A program made the position numbers and the translations under genes. 40,965 nt of DNA from a virus (taxonomy: Duplodnaviria > Heunggongvirae > Uroviricota > Caudoviricetes), in IMG/VR virus record IMGVR_UViG_2541047735_000003, positions 1-40,965 of that record; one strand, given 5' to 3'. Position 1 is the stretch's first letter; each line of letters opens with the position of its first letter. Positions 5,332-37,571 of the stretch are shown piece by piece. Under the pieces are notes generated by a model that saw only the letters and a program-made list of their open reading frames with translations, searched no databases and was not told the origin of the DNA.

Positions 5332-5916
5332 TTATTGTTTGTTTTTTTCGTTCTGGTTGATGACAAATTCAATGTAACTTTCGATCTTTGCTTTCTCGGT
5401 TTCGGGTAACAATGCGTAGCGCGAGCGGTCATAGTTGATGGTCGCAGGGTCGTGCGGGTGAATCAGTAATTCATAGCCGTGACGCCCGAATGCGGATGCA
5501 ACATTCTCCAGGGTGGAAATGGAAACGCTGACCTCATTGTTTAACAGGCGGCTGATTGTCACCTGGGCGACGCCGGATGCGCGGTGAAGTTTTCCCTGTG
5601 TTGAAAGGTCGCGGCTTTCGCTCATCCAGCGTTCCAGGTTGTGAGCCGCCAGCTGGCCAATGTCGCTTGGGCCGACAGGCTGAAAACCTTCCTGAGAAAG
5701 CGAGCGATCGATATCAAGCCAGTTACGGGGTTTATTGGCGGCAGCTTCAATTTTTCGCGCAACCTGGTCGCCGATAACCTTCTTGCCAAGAGCCCAGCGG
5801 TTTACCAGATTTGCCTGAGTTCCAAGTTTTTCTGCCATCCGCGTCTGAACACCATTGAATTCACGGTCGATCAAGTCGTTGAGATTTTGCCTGCGGACGT
5901 CCTGGATACTTTTCAT
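5332..5916 (-). CDS. CI-like prophage repressor with two HTH domains and no S24 peptidase domain
   Basis: 194-aa protein; N-terminal Cro/CI-type HTH (TRMAEKLGTQANLVNRWALGKK) and a second HTH-like segment (ASGVAQVTISRLLNNE); divergent from the cro-like gene across an operator-rich intergenic region; no Ala-Gly/Ser-Lys autocleavage module seen. Confidence 0.65.
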   Translation of the reverse strand: MKSIQDVRRQNLNDLIDREFNGVQTRMAEKLGTQANLVNRWALGKKVIGDQVARKIEAAANKPRNWLDIDRSLSQEGFQPVGPSDIGQLAAHNLERWMSESRDLSTQGKLHRASGVAQVTISRLLNNEVSVSISTLENVASAFGRHGYELLIHPHDPATINYDRSRYALLPETEKAKIESYIEFVINQNEKNKQ

Positions 5917-5971: not shown

Positions 5972-6034
5972 TTACCCAACAGGTAAATGCACCCCATAGG
6001 TAACTATCCTTGATTTTTGTTACCTTATGGGTGA
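5972..6034. promoter_or_regulatory. Tripartite operator between repressor and cro-like genes
   Basis: Three sites in 63 bp: TTACCCAACAGGTAA (5972-5986), GCACCCCATAGGTAA (5989-6003), TTACCTTATGGGTGA (6020-6034). Confidence 0.65.
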
Positions 6035-10523: not shown

Positions 10524-10538
10524 TTACCACAACGGTAA
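10524..10538. promoter_or_regulatory. Operator palindrome TTACCACAACGGTAA upstream of terminase small subunit
   Basis: Perfect site 17 nt upstream of ATG 10556. Confidence 0.55.
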
Positions 10539-13086: not shown

Positions 13087-13289
13087 AGTCTATTCTCAAC
13101 TTAAAAAAATGCCCGGCGAACCGGGCGAACTGGAGGCAATGAGTTATGCCTTCCGTGGCTGTACTGGTTTACAGCATGAAGTCATCGCAATGGCGTCCTG
13201 CTGTAAAAATGGCGGTGATAGTCCTTCAAGGGAAACCATCACCGCCAAGCCCCTGGAACTTCTGGCATCACGGTCCTTAGGCGTGATTC

Positions 13290-13366
13290 TGGCGTGGCAT
13301 GCAGGATTCGAACCTGCGACCAACCGCTTAGAAGGCGGTTGCTCTGTCCAACTGAGCTAATGCCAC
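13290..13366 (-). tRNA. tRNA-Arg (anticodon UCU)
   Basis: Minus strand reads GTGGCATTAGCTCAGTTGGACAGAGCAACCGCCTTCTAAGCGGTTGGTCGCAGGTTCGAATCCTGCATGCCACGCCA: 7-bp acceptor stem, D-arm, anticodon loop CTTCTAA (anticodon TCT), T-loop GGTTCGAATCC, encoded CCA. Confidence 0.85.
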
Positions 13367-13688: not shown

Positions 13689-13703
13689 TTACCTGAAAGG
13701 TAA
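13689..13703. promoter_or_regulatory. Operator palindrome TTACCTGAAAGGTAA upstream of portal operon
   Basis: Perfect site about 90 bp upstream of ATG 13794; identical 15-mer to the site at 34333. Confidence 0.55.
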
Positions 13704-13793
13704 TAATTAGTGCGTTAAATGTCAAGTATCTACGATAAATAAATCACATGTGGTTAAATTGGTAATAATTTAATTGCGTACGGAGTCATTGAT

Positions 13794-30372: not shown

Positions 30373-30579
30373 TCATTTTCGTAAAGCCATACAAATCATG
30401 GCTTGCACCCCACCGGCAGAAGGTATGGTGATTTCCACCATACCCTTCGAGAAGCGTTGAGAAATCTTCTTATGTTGAGATTTCCAGTCTAGACCCATTC
30501 CCTCAACGATAGGTTTCATTGGGGTGTACGGTTCGCCGTTGTGATTGACAACATAAAGTTCTACGCCGTGGAATGGCAC
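30373..30579 (-). pseudogene. Truncated antirepressor N-terminal fragment
   Basis: 68-aa ORF whose sequence (NGEPYTPMKPIVEGMGLDWKSQHKKI) resembles the N-terminal domain of P22-type antirepressors but ends after about 68 residues, far shorter than full-length antirepressors. Confidence 0.4.
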
Positions 30580-30726
30580 GTTGATAGTAGTGACAAGTTT
30601 GAAACATCGCTGGTTGTAAGCCAGCAGATGCTCGTTATTTTACATCGCGGTACAATTTCTCGCTGGTGGCTCTTTTACACACCTTAACCAAATACGGTTG
30701 ATTTTAATGTTTTTTCGCGCTTATCA

Positions 30727-30741
30727 TTACCTTTTCGGTAA
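30727..30741. promoter_or_regulatory. Operator palindrome TTACCTTTTCGGTAA at head of antirepressor leader 1
   Basis: Perfect site followed by TTTACA, a hairpin and an intrinsic terminator. Confidence 0.55.
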
Positions 30742-30831
30742 ATTTACATCGCGCTCATCTTGTGCCATAGTAATCGGGCACTGGCAAAATCCAGTGCCGG
30801 GATTGGCGTCCCGGGTTACTAAGTGGCGCAT

Positions 30832-30854
30832 ACCACGCCAGACGTGGTTTTTTT
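30832..30854 (+). terminator. Intrinsic terminator inside antirepressor leader 1
   Basis: ACCACG-CCAGA-CGTGGT followed by seven T; about 155 bp upstream of the antirepressor start codon. Confidence 0.6.
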
Positions 30855-31010
30855 ATGCGTTAAGCACAGCTATATCCGAATTATGGTGGGCTGGGCAGGG
30901 GTCCGAAAGGACGCCGGTACCACTTAGGCCGGTACGCCAACCTTGTCCAGTTCACCACCAGTAATTGGCGTTGCGGTGGTGATTAAAATCACTAAGTGGA
31001 GATAACCACC

Positions 31011-31721
31011 ATGGCTAATGCTCAAACTGCCATCTTCAAATTTGAATCTGTTAACCCTATCCGTTCCATCATTATCGATGGCCAACCATGGTTTGTAGCC
31101 CAAGACGTTTGTAGTGCGCTGCGTATCCAAAACGTCACCCAAGCACTTGAAAAACTGGATGATGATGAAAGGTCTATGTTCAACATAGGGCATGAACATC
31201 GTGCAATTTTTGACAGCCGAGTAAAAGAGATCAACATCATCTCCGAGTCAGGCCTCTACACACTGATCCTCCGCTGCCGCGACGCAGTGACACCAGGCAC
31301 TATCCCCTACCGCTTTCGTAAATGGGTTACAGGTGAGGTTCTTCCTCAGATCCGCCGCACCGGAAGTTACATTAAAAACTCGCTCCCGCAGGAAGAACGC
31401 ATAAAGATAGTTGCCGACCAGGTAGCCAACGCCACAGCATCAGCAGTGATGCAGGCAATGAAGATAGAGAACAAAACCTACAGTGCCCCGCTGAAGCCCG
31501 GCTACCGCAGCCTGATTCATTCTCCGTCTGGTGTTCTCGGCCTGACGGAGAACTCACTGCTGATGAATCTGCTGAACCAGTTACAGGACGACGGGCACGA
31601 CGTATCGGGCGCGGCGGCGGAGCTGACCACCATGTTCTGCTACATCGTCGGTGTGAGTAAATGCCTGCGTGATATCCAGACCCACGCGGAATACATCAAC
31701 GACAAGGCAGGGTTCTTCTGA
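31011..31721 (+). CDS. Bro-N domain antirepressor-like protein (copy 1)
   Basis: N-terminal Bro-N-like motif (DGQPWFVAQDVCSALRI); C-terminal about 135 aa nearly identical to the convergent paralog 32993..33730; ATG 31011 (ORF-track frame starts 30996). Confidence 0.65.
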   Translation: MANAQTAIFKFESVNPIRSIIIDGQPWFVAQDVCSALRIQNVTQALEKLDDDERSMFNIGHEHRAIFDSRVKEINIISESGLYTLILRCRDAVTPGTIPYRFRKWVTGEVLPQIRRTGSYIKNSLPQEERIKIVADQVANATASAVMQAMKIENKTYSAPLKPGYRSLIHSPSGVLGLTENSLLMNLLNQLQDDGHDVSGAAAELTTMFCYIVGVSKCLRDIQTHAEYINDKAGFF

Positions 31722-31850: not shown

Positions 31851-32177
31851 ATGACAAAACTTGGATTCGTGATGAGAGGTCCGGTAAGAAGCGGAACTCA
31901 TGCAAAGCGTAGCAAGAGTCGTATTTTTACTGGTAAGGTTGTAGCACGTAAATCAGCTATTGGCTCGTTCAATAGTGAAAATGCGGCATTGCGCCATATT
32001 TTTATCAGCACAAAGCCAAGAGCATCCGCTGATGTGCATACAATGTCTATTCCTATCACAAAGAATATAAAGCGGATAAAAAAGCTCTCATCTGCAGAAT
32101 CAAAAGAGATATCTTTCCGCCAGCTTAACTCATTAGAAACGCATATGAAGGAAGAGGAATTCGATGTTTTTGAGTGA
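31851..32177 (+). CDS. Hypothetical basic protein, first gene of AT-rich cargo operon
   Basis: 108 aa, Lys/Arg-rich; GGAG upstream; overlaps the downstream gene by 14 nt; no recognisable family. Confidence 0.5.
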   Translation: MTKLGFVMRGPVRSGTHAKRSKSRIFTGKVVARKSAIGSFNSENAALRHIFISTKPRASADVHTMSIPITKNIKRIKKLSSAESKEISFRQLNSLETHMKEEEFDVFE

Positions 32178-32676
32178 GTATAGCGGGAAGGTTATACCTA
32201 CTGGTGAGTTTAAAACTGATGACTTTCTGATTTCGCTAAAAGATGCTTTTAAACAACACTGGCGTCATGGTCATCATCCTGATCTGGGAAAAGATACTCT
32301 TTTTGAAAGACCAGAGGAAGTATTAGGCTTCCATCTCAGAAAGGTTCATGTCAATATTGGTGAATATGCATCATATTCATACTCATGTACTGAACAGTGT
32401 TGGGATGAGTGGTCATATGGATTGATTGATGAACAAGGAAATTACAGGCCAAAACCAACCAGTAACGCATATCTCATATATGCAGTCAATGAAATAAGAG
32501 ATGCAGCCTTACTAGCTTATTGGGACCCGCCCGCACACACCAAAGCTAACGCAAAAGTTTGGATGGATTCCGTATTGAATTTCACAAAATTATTTCATGA
32601 ACGAACGAATACAGCTCCACTTAGTAGAAATGTTTATCCGTGGGATTATTCGTACAAATCCAAAAAGCCTGCATAG
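32164..32676 (+). CDS. YafO-like toxin candidate
   Basis: 170 aa; segments FHLRKVHVNIGE and TSNAYLIYAV...AALLAYWDPPAHTKA resemble the YafO pattern as recalled from memory; AT-rich. Confidence 0.4.
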   Translation: MFLSEYSGKVIPTGEFKTDDFLISLKDAFKQHWRHGHHPDLGKDTLFERPEEVLGFHLRKVHVNIGEYASYSYSCTEQCWDEWSYGLIDEQGNYRPKPTSNAYLIYAVNEIRDAALLAYWDPPAHTKANAKVWMDSVLNFTKLFHERTNTAPLSRNVYPWDYSYKSKKPA

Positions 32677-32757
32677 TAGTTTTTTATGGACGAAACAAAA
32701 GTCAGTGCTACACTCATTGACGCCACATTGAGGTGGTTTATAGATGGAAATTTCACA

Positions 32758-32919
32758 ATGAAAAAAGCATTTGCTGCACTGTTCGTTTTGTTGTCTCTGG
32801 TAGCTTCAACTCAGGCCTTTGCCGGTCGTTGTCAGCACGACAGCGACACTGCTGCTGACGGCTCCCGCTGCGGTGGGCGTTCTGCGGATTCCCGCCCGGG
32901 TGGCGGTGGCATTCGTTAA
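32758..32919 (+). CDS. Small secreted peptide
   Basis: Internal ATG of ORF 32686..32919 gives MKKAFAALFVLLSLVASTQAFA signal peptide followed by a short Gly/Arg/Cys-containing mature region. Confidence 0.45.
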   Translation: MKKAFAALFVLLSLVASTQAFAGRCQHDSDTAADGSRCGGRSADSRPGGGGIR

Positions 32920-32961: not shown

Positions 32962-33406
32962 TCGTTTTGCACGTCCCTGTGCCGCCGTTCTGTCAGAAGA
33001 ACCCTGCCTTGTCGTTGATGTATTCCGCGTGGGTCTGGATATCACGCAGGCATTTGCTCACACCGACGATGTAGCAGAACATGGTGGTCAGCTCCGCCGC
33101 CGCGCCCGATACATCGTGCCCGTCTTCCTGTAACTGGTTCAGCAGATTCATCAGCAGTGAGTTCTCCGTCAGGCCGAGAACACCAGACGGAGAATGAATC
33201 AGGCTGCGGTAGCCGGGCTTCAGCGGGGCACTGTAGGTTTTGTTCTCTATCTTCATCGCCTGCATTACTGCTGACGCCGTGGCGTTGGCTACCTGGTCGG
33301 CAACCATCTTTATGCGTTCTTCCTGCGGGAGCGAGTTTTTAATGTAACTTCCGGTGCGGCGGATCTGAGGAAGAACCTCACCTGTAACCCATTCAAGAAA
33401 TCTGAA
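32962..33406 (-). repeat. Inverted repeat: 3' half of antirepressor copy 2
   Basis: Partner of 31308..31752; antisense spurious ORFs 31372..31557 and 33157..33342 are about 90 percent identical, showing the nucleotide identity. Confidence 0.65.
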
Positions 33407-33730
33407 TGCTCTCGTTCCCTCAGTCATTGCCTCTTTGCAACGCAGAATAAGGATGTAGAGACCTGATTCTGAAACGATGGATAGTTCTTGTATTCCACCA
33501 GGGGTCTGTATTGAATACAGCCCCTTTTTGTTCCAGCCTTTTTTATCAAGTTTTCTCGCTTGTGTAACATCAATATTCAAAGCATTGCACACATCTTTGG
33601 TGACAAACCAAGGTTCTCCGTCAATCATGAACATACGGATCTGGCAGGATGACTCAAAGGAAAAGATGGAAGGTTTGGTATTCATGGCGATCACCTTTGT
33701 AGTTAGGTTAATCACCACCGCTGAGACCAA
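32993..33730 (-). CDS. Bro-N domain antirepressor-like protein (copy 2)
   Basis: N-terminal Bro-N-like motif (DGEPWFVTKDVCNALNI) divergent from copy 1; C-terminal half nearly identical to copy 1; true start probably the internal ATG (MNTKPSIF). Confidence 0.65.
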   Translation of the reverse strand: MVSAVVINLTTKVIAMNTKPSIFSFESSCQIRMFMIDGEPWFVTKDVCNALNIDVTQARKLDKKGWNKKGLYSIQTPGGIQELSIVSESGLYILILRCKEAMTEGTRAFRFLEWVTGEVLPQIRRTGSYIKNSLPQEERIKMVADQVANATASAVMQAMKIENKTYSAPLKPGYRSLIHSPSGVLGLTENSLLMNLLNQLQEDGHDVSGAAAELTTMFCYIVGVSKCLRDIQTHAEYINDKAGFF

Positions 33731-33967
33731 TCAGATGGTGGTGAACTGTGCAGAGTTGGTCTTACCGGCTACAAAGGAACCCGGCGCACCTTTCGGTGCC
33801 CCCACACAGCCCACCATAGAATAGGTGCGCTTTACACATAAAAAAACCGCTTATGCGGCATATGTGCCTCTGTAGTAATCCGGGAGACCAATCCCGGCAC
33901 TGGATTTTGCCAGTGCCCGATTACTATGGCACAAGAGGAGTGCGATGTAAATTTACCGAAAAGGTAA
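33731..33967 (-). repeat. Antirepressor leader, inverted-repeat copy A'
   Basis: Reverse complement aligns with 30715..30995, including the operator, the hairpin and a T-run terminator with a shorter CCGC-ATAA-GCGG stem. Confidence 0.6.
33953..33967. promoter_or_regulatory. Operator palindrome TTACCGAAAAGGTAA at head of antirepressor leader 2
   Basis: Perfect site; mirror-image counterpart of the site at 30727. Confidence 0.55.
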
Positions 33968-33998
33968 ATATAAGCACTCCACTTGGTAATTGCAAACC

Positions 33999-34256
33999 TT
34001 ATCTGGTTTGTTTTCGTAATTGTTCGGCACAATAGTCGAGATGTGTTTGCAGATCCTGCATAGACATCTGTGAGCTGGTGACGTAGTTAATCAGTGCAGT
34101 CAGTTCGGCAAGTGGGCCATCGACATTAAATCCATCCTTATCGAGATCCCGGAGTAATTTCATCAAGTGCGATCCCTCCACCAGTGACCTGACGCCTCCC
34201 GGCGTGTGAATCCTTTCGGTAAATCCGTCTTCCAGTGGATAGTGATACTGCTGCAT
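33999..34256 (-). CDS. Small stand-alone antirepressor C-domain homolog, LexA-box associated
   Basis: 85 aa from ATG 34256; IHTPGGVRSLVEGSHLMKLLRDLDKDGFNVDGPLAELT...DLQTH aligns with the C-terminal domain of both Bro-N proteins; a CTGT-N8-ACAG box lies about 22 bp upstream; ORF-track frame extends to 34379. Confidence 0.55.
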   Translation of the reverse strand: MQQYHYPLEDGFTERIHTPGGVRSLVEGSHLMKLLRDLDKDGFNVDGPLAELTALINYVTSSQMSMQDLQTHLDYCAEQLRKQTR

Positions 34257-34277
34257 CTTATCTTCTCCATGCAATAA

Positions 34278-34293
34278 CTGTATATTTATACAG
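34278..34293. promoter_or_regulatory. LexA (SOS) box CTGTATATTTATACAG
   Basis: Matches the CTGT-N8-ACAG consensus with an AT-rich spacer; 22 bp upstream of ATG 34256 on the minus strand. Confidence 0.6.
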
Positions 34294-34332
34294 TAGCAAA
34301 TAATTTGTTTGCTATCCAGCACGTTTTGCAAA

Positions 34333-34347
34333 TTACCTGAAAGGTAA
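34333..34347. promoter_or_regulatory. Operator palindrome TTACCTGAAAGGTAA between small antirepressor gene and tailspike
   Basis: Perfect site in the divergent intergenic region. Confidence 0.55.
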
Positions 34348-34451
34348 TATCTATTCGTATTTACAGTCTTTCTATCCATATGTGGTTTTCCAGGTAATAG
34401 AATAACCAGATATGCGGCGCAACGGGTGCTGCGACTATCTGGAGATTTAAC

Positions 34452-37400
34452 ATGACGGTCTCAACCGAAGTTGACCACAACGAATACACCGGTAACGGCG
34501 TTACGACATCGTTTCCGTATACTTTTCGAATTTTCAGAAAATCAGACCTGGTTGTTCAGGTGTCTGACCTGAACGGGAACGTAACAGAATTGGTTCTGGA
34601 TACCGGTTATACGGTAACTGGGGCGGGCACTTATAGTGGCGGTGCAGTGGTTCTTCCGTCGCCGCTTGCTGCTGGCTGGCGAATCACGATAGAGCGTGTG
34701 CTTGATGTGGTGCAGGAGACAGACCTTCGCAATCAGGGAAAATTTTTCCCCGAAGTGCATGAAGATGCCTTTGACTACCTGACGATGCTGATCCAGCAAT
34801 GTTTTGGGTGGTTCAGACGTGCATTGATGAAACCATCTTTGCTTGCAAAATATTACGATGCAAAGCAAAACAAAATTTCTAACCTTGCAGATCCATCATT
34901 TGAGCAGGACGCTGTAAATAATCGCTCAATGCGTAATTATGTCGATGCTGCAATCGCCGGGGTTGTTGGTGGTTTTGGTTGGTTTATTCAGTATGGTTCT
35001 GGGGCTGTGTACCGAACGTTCCAGGATAAAATGCGTGATGCTATTAGCCCCAAAGATTTTGGAGCTGTTGGTGATGGTATAAATGACGATTCCACTGCAA
35101 TAAGCGCGTGCCTTGAAGCCTCATCTCCAGGTTATAAAATTGACGGATTAGGGCTTACTTTTAAAGTATCAACTCTTCCGGATGTCAGTCGATTTAAAAA
35201 TGCTCGTTTTTTATTTGAGAGAATACCGGGCCAGCCTCTTTTTTATGCTTCTGAAGATTTTATCCAGGGAGAGTTATTTAAAATTACAGATACACCGTGG
35301 TACAACGCCTGGACGCAGGATAAAACGTTTGTATATGACAATGTCATCTATGCGCCTTTTATGGCTGGAGACCGCCATGGTGTAAATAACCTCCATGTTG
35401 CATGGGTTCGCTCAGGAGATGACGGGAAGACCTGGACAACGCCGGAATGGCTTACAGATTTACATGAAAACTATCCCACAGTTAACTATCACTGCATGAG
35501 TATGGGGGTTGTCAGAAATCGCCTTTTTGCTGTAATTGAGACGCGGACCGTGAGCGGAAATAAACTGCAGGTTGCAGAGTTGTGGGATCGCCCAATGAGT
35601 CGCAGCCTTCGCGTTTATGGTGGTATAACGAAAGCAGCAAATCAGCAAGTCGCTTATATTCGCATTACTGATCACGGATTATTTGCTGGTGATTTTGTCA
35701 ACTTCTCAAACTCTGGTGTTACAGGTGTTACCGGGAATATGACGGTGACTACTGTTATTGATAAAAATACTTTTACAGTTACGACGCAAAATACCCAGGA
35801 TGTGGATCAGAATAACGAGGGTAGATACTGGAGTTTTGGTACATCATTTCACTCGTCACCATGGAGAAAAACCAGTCTTGGAACTATTCCTTCTTTTGTT
35901 GACGGAAGCACTCCTGTTACTGAGATTCACAGTTTTGCGACGATTAGCGATAACAGTTTTGCTGTTGGCTACCATAATGGTGATATTGGTCCACGCGAGC
36001 TTGGGATACTCTATTTCTCTGATGCTTTCGGTTCTCCTGGTAGCTTTGTTCGCAGACGCATACCTGCAGAATATGAGGCGAATGCATCTGAGCCATGTGT
36101 AAAATATTATGATGGCATTCTGTATCTGACGACCAGGGGGACATTAAGTACTCAACCCGGTAGTTCATTGCACAGAAGCTCTGATTTAGGTACATCATGG
36201 AATTCTCTTCGCTTCCCAAATAATGTTCATCACTCAAACCTTCCTTTTGCCAAAGTTGGCGATGAGCTGATTATTTTTGGCAGTGAGCGCGCATTTGGTG
36301 AGTGGGAAGGAGGAGAACCTGATAACCGTTATGCAGGAAATTATCCAAGAACATTTATGACCAGAGTTAACGTCAATGAGTGGAGTCTGGATAATGTAGA
36401 GTGGGTTAATGTTACTGATCAGATTTATCAGGGCGGAATAGTTAACTCTGCGGTTGGTGTTGGTTCAGTTTGTATCAAAGACAACTGGCTGTACTACATT
36501 TTCGGTGGGGAAGACTTTCTAAACCCATGGAGCATAGGGGATAACAACAGAAAATATCCTTATTTTCACGATGGTCACCCGGCTGATTTGTATTGTTTCA
36601 GGGTGAAAATTAAACAGGAAGAATTTGTTTCAAGGGATTTTGTCTACGGAGCCACTCCTAACAGAACGCTTCCTACTTTTATGTCGACGTCAGGCGTGAG
36701 GACGGTTCCTGTACCCGTTGATTTCACAGATGATGTTGCCGTCCAGTCACTGACTGTCCATGCAGGTACATCAGGACAAGTTCGCGCGGAAGTCAAACTT
36801 GAGGGTAATTACGCCATTATTGCGAAGAAAGTACCGTCTGATGATGTTACCGCTCAGAGATTAATCGTTAGCGGCGGTGAAACAACGTCTTCAGCAGATG
36901 GTGCAATGATAACGTTGCATGGTTCCGGAAGCAGTACTCCACGTCGCGCGGTATATAACGCACTCGAACATCTTTTTGAGAACGGAGATGTTAAACCTTA
37001 TCTTGATAATGTAAATGCTCTTGGTGGTCCGGGAAACAGGTTCTCGACAGTTTATCTTGGCTCCAATCCTGTGGTTACCAGTGACGGAACATTAAAGACA
37101 GAGCCGGTCTCTCCTGACGAAGCATTGCTGGATGCCTGGGGTGACGTCAGGTATATCGCTTATAAATGGCTGAACGCTGTCGCTATAAAGGGGGAAGAAG
37201 GGGCGAGGATACATCATGGTGTAATCGCGCAGCAACTTCGTGATGTTCTTATTTCTCACGGACTCATGGAAGAAGAAAGCACAACATGCCGCTATGCCTT
37301 TCTTTGCTATGACGATTATCCCGCAGTATATGATGACGTCATTACTGGCCAAAGGGAAATGCCGCTGACTGATAATGACGGGAGCATCATTGTTGATGAG

Positions 37401-37571
37401 GATGATAATCCAGTGATGGTAATAGAAGACATCATTGAGCGCGTTGAAATAACGCCAGCAGGATCTAGATGGGGGGTCAGACCTGATCTCTTATTCTATA
37501 TCGAGGCAGCATGGCAGCGCAGAGAAATGGATAAGATAAAAGAGCGGGTTCAGTCTCTGGAAGAACGTTAA
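34452..37571 (+). CDS. Tailspike / receptor-binding protein with sialidase-like domain and C-terminal chaperone
   Basis: 1039 aa; two Asp-box motifs (SGDDGKTW, SSDLGTSW); C-terminal SDGTLKTEPV...HHGVIAQQLRDVL resembles the autoproteolytic S74 chaperone domain of endosialidase-type tail proteins. Confidence 0.8.
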   Translation: MTVSTEVDHNEYTGNGVTTSFPYTFRIFRKSDLVVQVSDLNGNVTELVLDTGYTVTGAGTYSGGAVVLPSPLAAGWRITIERVLDVVQETDLRNQGKFFPEVHEDAFDYLTMLIQQCFGWFRRALMKPSLLAKYYDAKQNKISNLADPSFEQDAVNNRSMRNYVDAAIAGVVGGFGWFIQYGSGAVYRTFQDKMRDAISPKDFGAVGDGINDDSTAISACLEASSPGYKIDGLGLTFKVSTLPDVSRFKNARFLFERIPGQPLFYASEDFIQGELFKITDTPWYNAWTQDKTFVYDNVIYAPFMAGDRHGVNNLHVAWVRSGDDGKTWTTPEWLTDLHENYPTVNYHCMSMGVVRNRLFAVIETRTVSGNKLQVAELWDRPMSRSLRVYGGITKAANQQVAYIRITDHGLFAGDFVNFSNSGVTGVTGNMTVTTVIDKNTFTVTTQNTQDVDQNNEGRYWSFGTSFHSSPWRKTSLGTIPSFVDGSTPVTEIHSFATISDNSFAVGYHNGDIGPRELGILYFSDAFGSPGSFVRRRIPAEYEANASEPCVKYYDGILYLTTRGTLSTQPGSSLHRSSDLGTSWNSLRFPNNVHHSNLPFAKVGDELIIFGSERAFGEWEGGEPDNRYAGNYPRTFMTRVNVNEWSLDNVEWVNVTDQIYQGGIVNSAVGVGSVCIKDNWLYYIFGGEDFLNPWSIGDNNRKYPYFHDGHPADLYCFRVKIKQEEFVSRDFVYGATPNRTLPTFMSTSGVRTVPVPVDFTDDVAVQSLTVHAGTSGQVRAEVKLEGNYAIIAKKVPSDDVTAQRLIVSGGETTSSADGAMITLHGSGSSTPRRAVYNALEHLFENGDVKPYLDNVNALGGPGNRFSTVYLGSNPVVTSDGTLKTEPVSPDEALLDAWGDVRYIAYKWLNAVAIKGEEGARIHHGVIAQQLRDVLISHGLMEEESTTCRYAFLCYDDYPAVYDDVITGQREMPLTDNDGSIIVDEDDNPVMVIEDIIERVEITPAGSRWGVRPDLLFYIEAAWQRREMDKIKERVQSLEER

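Follow-up and report, generated by a model that had tools for sequence, protein, structure and literature searches.

The switch to lytic growth in the prophage studied here is very probably controlled by a small antirepressor gene, ant, that is gated by LexA: the removal of LexA would turn ant on, the Ant protein would disassemble the tetramer of the prophage repressor Rep, and the lytic genes would be turned on (we put the probability of this reading at about 0.88). Such a LexA-gated Ant/Rep switch is already known and not new, since the published and crystallised example from phage SPC32H belongs to the same genus and has the same box in the same place. The SPC32H Rep/Ant system was reportedly described by Kim & Ryu 2013 (J Virol 87:11775) and Kim et al. 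2016 (PNAS 113:E2480), with PDB entries 5D50 and 5D4Z. The initial annotation had proposed that a LexA-controlled small antirepressor acts here on a non-cleavable repressor, and this proposal is supported, as all of its elements are present and orthologous to the SPC32H Rep/Ant pair.

The window, that is, the whole stretch of 40,965 nucleotides that was analysed, is, judging by its sequence, essentially a whole phiV10/epsilon15-like (Uetakevirus) prophage. The window region is 92-99% identical to the Escherichia phages phiV10, vB_EcoP_ZX5 (hereafter ZX5) and phiv142-3, and the same region is ~75-78% identical to the Salmonella phages epsilon15, SPN1S and SPC32H; every one of these six phages that has a genus assignment is placed in Uetakevirus. 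Set against the epsilon15 map, the window spans the integrase gene through the Rz lysis gene and continues into host genes. The small gene at the centre of the switch and its ribosome-binding signal are located as follows.

33999-34256, minus strand: ant, encoding an 85-aa stand-alone antirepressor, the orthologue of SPC32H Ant (ATG at 34256-34254, stop at 33999).
34265-34268, minus strand: Shine-Dalgarno GGAG, 8 nt before the ant ATG, read from the sequence.

The Ant protein is 100% identical to the ZX5 protein QZE12053 and 88.2% identical to SPC32H Ant over 85 aa. The only solved structure that it matches is chain E ('Anti-repressor protein') of PDB 5D50 (E = 4e-47), which is the SPC32H Rep-Ant complex. 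The orthologous 261-bp gene is annotated ant in the SPC32H GenBank record, where it is divergent from tsp; in the window, ant and the tailspike gene diverge, and ant is located downstream of the injection-protein genes, with the same synteny as in SPC32H. The small Ant had no match to any Pfam or NCBIfam family, and the Pfam scan detected neither a Bro-N (PF02498) nor a P22_AR_N N-terminal domain in it. It falls in PHROG 450, which is labelled 'unknown function' and also matches the two larger Bro-N proteins encoded in the window. The small gene had been described initially as homologous to the C-terminal domain of these Bro-N proteins, and this is borne out, as the C-terminal ends of both Bro-N ORFs are 42% identical to it over 74 residues (E = 2e-15 and 7e-16).

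Three elements are recognized in the DNA upstream of ant.

34276-34295, no strand assigned: predicted LexA box with a CTGT-N8-ACAG core at 34278-34293, 18/20 to the consensus.
34290-34318, minus strand: inferred ant promoter, with -35 TGGATA (34318-34313), a 17-nt spacer and -10 TACTGT (34295-34290), assigned from conservation.
34332-34348, no strand assigned: 17-bp Rep operator-type palindrome, ATTACCTGAAAGGTAAT, which aligns with an epsilon15 repressor feature.

The core of the predicted box reads CTGTATATTTATACAG on the plus strand (34278-34293), and the 20-mer around it (AACTGTATATTTATACAGTA, 34276-34295) has only 2 mismatches to the E. coli SOS consensus (TACTGTATATATATACAGTA), hence 18 matches out of 20. 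The earlier claim of a near-consensus box before the small gene is thus upheld; its spacing has to be corrected, the distance from box to ATG being 21 nt instead of 22, and the description as a whole is right to within a single base. The conservation of the region was studied in an alignment of 15 loci, made up of the window, phiV10, SPC32H, SPC32N, epsilon15, five bacterial genomes and five further phages. In 11 of the 14 natural loci, the box stands at an unchanged distance from the ATG, and the loci that bear it belong to Escherichia, Salmonella, Citrobacter, Enterobacter, Erwinia, Pseudocitrobacter and Scandinavium. Neither the CTGT nor the ACAG arm varies in those 11 loci, and the 8-nt spacer occurs in eight different forms; arms that hold while the spacer drifts suggest the footprint of a protein-binding site and not general conservation. 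Three Klebsiella phages have ATGTATATATATACAG at this place (ATGT...ACAG), with one arm mismatch.

The LexA-like palindrome could in principle be a chance inverted repeat of AT-rich DNA with no LexA function, given that the region is AT-rich and intergenic and that the window holds a second CTGT-N8-ACAG copy at 13159, which fits chance-like statistics (2 copies in the window versus 0.43 expected). We give this explanation almost no credence: no other site of the window has 3 or fewer mismatches to the 20-nt consensus, 0 of 100 dinucleotide-preserving shuffles contained such a site, the arms do not vary across genera whereas the spacer does, and SPC32N departs from SPC32H exactly in the ACAG arm. 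The window box is column-aligned with the SPC32H box, in which SPC32N has ACAG>AAAG. Over the ~1.07-kb ant-tailspike stretch that was compared, SPC32N and SPC32H have just two differing bases, this one and a G>A early in the tailspike gene. Kim & Ryu 2013 reportedly found that mutation of the box makes Ant constitutive and SPC32N lytic. The second CTGT-N8-ACAG copy (13159-13174, CTGTACTGGTTTACAG) was considered as a further LexA site and rejected, as it has a GC-rich spacer and more than 3 mismatches to the 20-nt consensus and directly precedes a terminator-like hairpin; it is probably not a LexA site. On one side of it is a tRNA-Arg(UCU) gene (13290-13366, minus strand) and on the other is this hairpin, which is itself upstream of an ORF of the gp49/gene-66 family.

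The ant promoter was assigned from conservation because the consensus promoter scan called no promoter at the box. The blocks CTGGATAG and TACTGT are conserved on either side of a variable 17-nt spacer, and the box also contains TATAAA, an alternative -10; under either choice, the ant -10 would overlap the LexA site. These assignments would lose their meaning if the real gene were a 126-aa ORF (34379..33999), for which there is an in-frame ATG at 34379 and a frame that stays open through the box, since the box and the palindrome would then lie within coding sequence and not be regulatory. This longer ORF was rejected and is highly improbable, because the crystallised and annotated Ant has 86 aa and its alignment starts at residue 2 of the short form, because the GGAG stands 8 nt before the ATG at 34256, in a block (GCATGGAGA) common to 12 non-Klebsiella loci (it differs in the three Klebsiella phages), and because the upstream DNA is conserved in blocks (the operator arms, the -35 and the box arms) that are split by variable stretches and indels, unlike a reading frame.

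The presumed target of Ant is the repressor.

5332-5916, minus strand: rep, encoding a 194-aa prophage repressor with two HTH-type domains, assigned from its 5D50_A match and Pfam.

Rep matches chain A ('Repressor') of 5D50 over its full length (E = 4e-42), and it shares 100% identity with its counterparts in phiV10, in ZX5 and in a dozen further E. coli phages. Its Pfam matches are to helix-turn-helix families only, with no Peptidase_S24, and a tblastn search for an S24 module anywhere in the window, using E. coli LexA and lambda CI sequences as queries, returned nothing better than E = 0.9. Both results agree with the earlier statement that the repressor is devoid of an S24 autocleavage module. 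The identity of Rep to SPC32H Rep is 43% overall, with 52% in the DNA-binding N-terminal domain and 37% in the C-terminal domain for tetramerisation and Ant binding. The conservation of the two presumed binding partners with respect to SPC32H is therefore strikingly asymmetric, with 88% for Ant versus 43% for Rep (37% in the Ant-bound domain). Rep is found in essentially the same 35-36 phage records as Ant, a co-occurrence which argues that Ant engages the phiV10-type Rep, and a contact between them is plausible by analogy with SPC32H.

The sites on which Rep is expected to act were searched for with the TACC-N5-GGTA pattern, which has 11 perfect occurrences in the window versus 0.18 expected.

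5199, 5261, 5973, 8280, 8342, 10525, 13690, 30728, 31795, 33954 and 34334, no strand assigned: perfect operators of the TACC-N5-GGTA pattern.
5973-6033, no strand assigned: operator cluster between rep and cro, with a perfect site at 5973-5985 and sites with one mismatch each at 5990-6002 and 6021-6033.

Two perfect operators are present in SPC32H and epsilon15 at the place equivalent to the rep-cro cluster. Pairs of operators 62 bp apart are found downstream of rep (5199/5261) and after the replication genes (8280/8342), the operators at 10525 and 13690 precede the packaging and late regions, and the ant region contains four (30728, 31795, 33954 and 34334). The same census yields 11 operators in SPC32H and 13 in epsilon15, at equivalent map positions and with the same spacing, and the epsilon15 GenBank record carries 'protein_bind repressor' features, including one upstream of gp19, the ant orthologue. 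It is because of this census and of the epsilon15 annotation that the palindrome at 34332-34348 is assigned to the Rep operator type. The scattered distribution of the sites suits looping by a tetrameric repressor. On the minus strand at 13690-13745, a consensus -35 TTGACA is followed, after a 17-nt spacer, by the hexamer TACCTT, provided by the left arm of the operator at 13690-13702; this arrangement looks like a Rep-controlled promoter directed towards the tRNA-Arg gene.

The palindrome upstream of ant is perfect in 14 of the 15 aligned loci, phiV10 having one mismatch (GGTG). An operator palindrome further upstream of the box had also been part of the initial annotation; it is indeed there (34332-34348) and perfect, at 38 nt beyond the box. 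Its distance upstream is ~57 bp from the inferred ant start and ~70 bp from the inferred tailspike promoter, so that neither core promoter includes it. Full repression of ant by Rep at 34332-34348 would mean that the cleavage of LexA is not enough for prophage induction. The palindrome may possibly serve for looping to the operator at 33954-33966, or it may act with the IHF site of the epsilon15 annotation to control the tailspike promoter. The candidate tailspike promoter itself (TCCATA-17-TAGAAT, 34375-34403, plus strand) has a -10 that overlaps the block GGTAATAG, which does not vary among the 15 aligned loci; no promoter was called by the scan at 34375-34403.

Taken together, these elements would work as follows. 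In the lysogen, host LexA would occupy the box at 34278-34293 and keep ant silent, because the box overlaps the -10/start region of ant, and non-cleavable, tetrameric Rep would meanwhile hold the lytic promoters through its TACC-N5-GGTA operators. DNA damage would lead to the RecA-stimulated self-cleavage of LexA and thus to the transcription of ant; the 85-aa Ant would then bind Rep, break the DNA-binding tetramer and free Rep from its operators, and lytic growth would ensue. By analogy with the characterized systems, LexA is expected to bind the box at 34278-34293 and Ant is expected to bind Rep in this phage. Prophage induction once LexA self-cleavage permits the synthesis of a repressor-binding antirepressor has been described (PMC7380047), as has the binding of tetrameric Ant to two Rep dimers, which breaks the DNA-binding Rep tetramer (PMC9638917; PMC9986798). 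The ZX5 lysogen is inducible with mitomycin C (PMC9782041), and a microcin that damages DNA induces prophages of the phiV10 species (bioRxiv 10.64898/2026.05.26.727859).

The ant gene is not the only source of Ant domains in the window, as two convergent cassettes, which form an inverted repeat with each other, are found next to it. Both have the order promoter with Rep operator, IsrK-type sRNA with terminator, C4-type antisense RNA and Bro-N::Ant-C gene.

30700-31721, plus strand: cassette copy 1, with operator 30728-30740, isrK 30778-30854, C4 30879-30962 and Bro-N::Ant-C gene 30996-31721.
33954-33996, minus strand: sigma70-like promoter of copy 2, TTGCAA-17-TATATT, with operator TACCTTTTCGGTA over the start site, directly downstream of ant.
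33734-33916, minus strand: isrK-type sRNA of copy 2 (33916-33840, with terminator), then C4-type antisense RNA (33821-33734), both from Rfam.
32993-33730, minus strand: Bro-N::Ant-C gene of copy 2, with a likely start ATG at 33685 and a Pfam Bro-N domain.

The isrK and C4 genes of copy 2 have Rfam scores of 74.7 and 78.6 bits, both above the gathering threshold. The Bro-N::Ant-C proteins of the two copies share 75% identity and are almost the same in their C-terminal halves, and the protein of copy 2 is 81% identical to the 'anti-repressor' ORF4 of ZX5, with an identical C-terminal half. The operator TACCTTTTCGGTA is on the start site in both cassettes, which are therefore expected to be silent until Rep is already compromised, and the window scan detected no LexA box at either of them.

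The presence of these paralogues allows another interpretation, in which the LexA-gated Ant is real but is not the main trigger: the Bro-N::Ant-C proteins would be the ones that act on the phiV10-type Rep, or Ant would act mainly in trans on the Reps of other prophages. The C-terminal domain of Rep is just 37% identical to the Ant-bound domain of SPC32H Rep, overexpression of the Bro-N protein ORF4 of ZX5 made lysogeny ~1000-fold lower and brought rep transcription down by 75% (PMC9782041), and trans-acting antirepressors are documented in Salmonella (PMC3121763). Nevertheless, this interpretation seems unlikely, as the start sites of both Bro-N cassettes carry a Rep operator, as neither cassette has a LexA box and as Ant and the phiV10-type Rep co-occur strictly. 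The reading in which LexA-gated Ant is the trigger is thus preferred, and the cassettes may be accommodated within it. A tentative and rather doubtful scenario is a two-tier cascade, in which LexA-gated Ant would remove Rep and the loss of Rep would open the two IsrK-C4-Bro-N::Ant-C cassettes, which would provide more Ant-domain proteins. If this were true, the second tier could act either as a Rep-sensitive positive feedback that locks induction or as a trans-acting anti-immunity layer, and the cascade would join three known control styles. DNA looping from the conserved Rep operator ahead of ant might link the tiers to each other.

The cassettes are accompanied by several other features. Inverted repeats at 31219-31722/32992-33495 (504 nt, 91%) and at 30719-30821/33873-33975 (103 nt, 93%) flank a 1.27-kb insert, and from their sequence they could support the inversion or recombination of the segment. 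The insert carries three ORFs of 108, 170 and 77 aa between the Bro-N genes (31851-32919, plus strand). The 170-aa ORF has a weak match to the YafO toxin (Pfam E = 7e-4, below the cut-off) and its homologue is named a YafO family toxin in RefSeq, and the 77-aa ORF encodes a secreted or membrane protein and is a moron, in the sense of an accessory gene with no part in phage growth. At 30373-30579 on the minus strand is what remains, over 68 aa, of a P22-type antirepressor N-terminal domain (Pfam P22_AR_N, E = 2.5e-20); its homologue in strain N21 is marked as a pseudogene in RefSeq.

On the other side of ant, the tailspike gene (34452-37571, plus strand) encodes an epsilon15-type N-terminus followed by a complete endosialidase with an S74 chaperone domain (Pfam E = 4e-233). 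Because its tailspike carries a complete endosialidase, the phage is probably specific for the K1 (polysialic acid) capsule. A close relative is found in a CSF isolate, strain N21.

The practical value of these observations is one of annotation, as the mechanism is already established for the Salmonella orthologue and its understanding is unchanged. The segment comprising ant and the LexA box (33999-34350) is present, at a nucleotide identity of at least 90%, in 529 of 5,426 complete E. coli genomes (~10%), and ant is named 'hypothetical protein' in all 11 of the listed matches that cover the gene. Recognising ant explains the DNA-damage response of these non-S24 prophages, several of which carry O-antigen-modifying or K1-specific tailspike functions.

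Among the known systems, ZX5 has a Rep and a small Ant that are 100% identical to those of the window and a tailspike gene of the same length, but it has one Bro-N cassette versus two in the window. In the ZX5 paper, the one experimental study of an E. coli phage that has the identical gene, the Bro-N protein ORF4 alone was assayed as 'anti-repressor' and the small gene was left as a hypothetical protein (PMC9782041). Coliphage 186 Tum and the Gifsy-1/Gifsy-3 antirepressors resemble the window in that a LexA box controls the promoter of a small antirepressor gene, whose product binds and so inactivates a non-cleavable repressor (PMC7380047; PMC3121763). The 186 Tum and Gifsy analogues had been put forward as precedents from the start and they do follow the same logic, but the exact precedent, SPC32H, had been missed. 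They differ from the window in phage type and in repressor fold, and the Pfam and NCBIfam scans of Ant detected no sequence relationship with them. A DinI-like domain, as in the C-terminal region of Tum, was searched for in Ant and found neither above noise in Pfam nor at all in NCBIfam.

The Bro-N cassettes resemble other systems, namely the immI locus (c4-icd-ant) of P1/P7 and the isrK-orf45-anrP locus of Gifsy-1, in the C4-type and IsrK-type RNA genes that stand ahead of the antirepressor gene, and their promoter carries the operator of the prophage repressor, as in P1 immI. Control of an antirepressor by IsrK-dependent read-through has been described (PMC4825925). This likeness holds for the Bro-N paralogues; the small ant lacks both RNAs and is under LexA gating.

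The closest characterized system remains that of SPC32H. The window differs from it in its host, E. coli, and in its Rep, which is of a diverged immunity type. Relative to both SPC32H and epsilon15, which are without them, it has gained the two Bro-N::Ant-C cassettes with their IsrK and C4 RNAs and the YafO-like module, all of which sit between the injection genes and ant. The core of the switch is shared with SPC32H: Ant is orthologous (88%), Rep is homologous (43%) with the same two-domain architecture and no S24, the box is at the same aligned position, the operators are of the same type and at equivalent map positions, the tailspike synteny is retained, and both phages are Uetakevirus.
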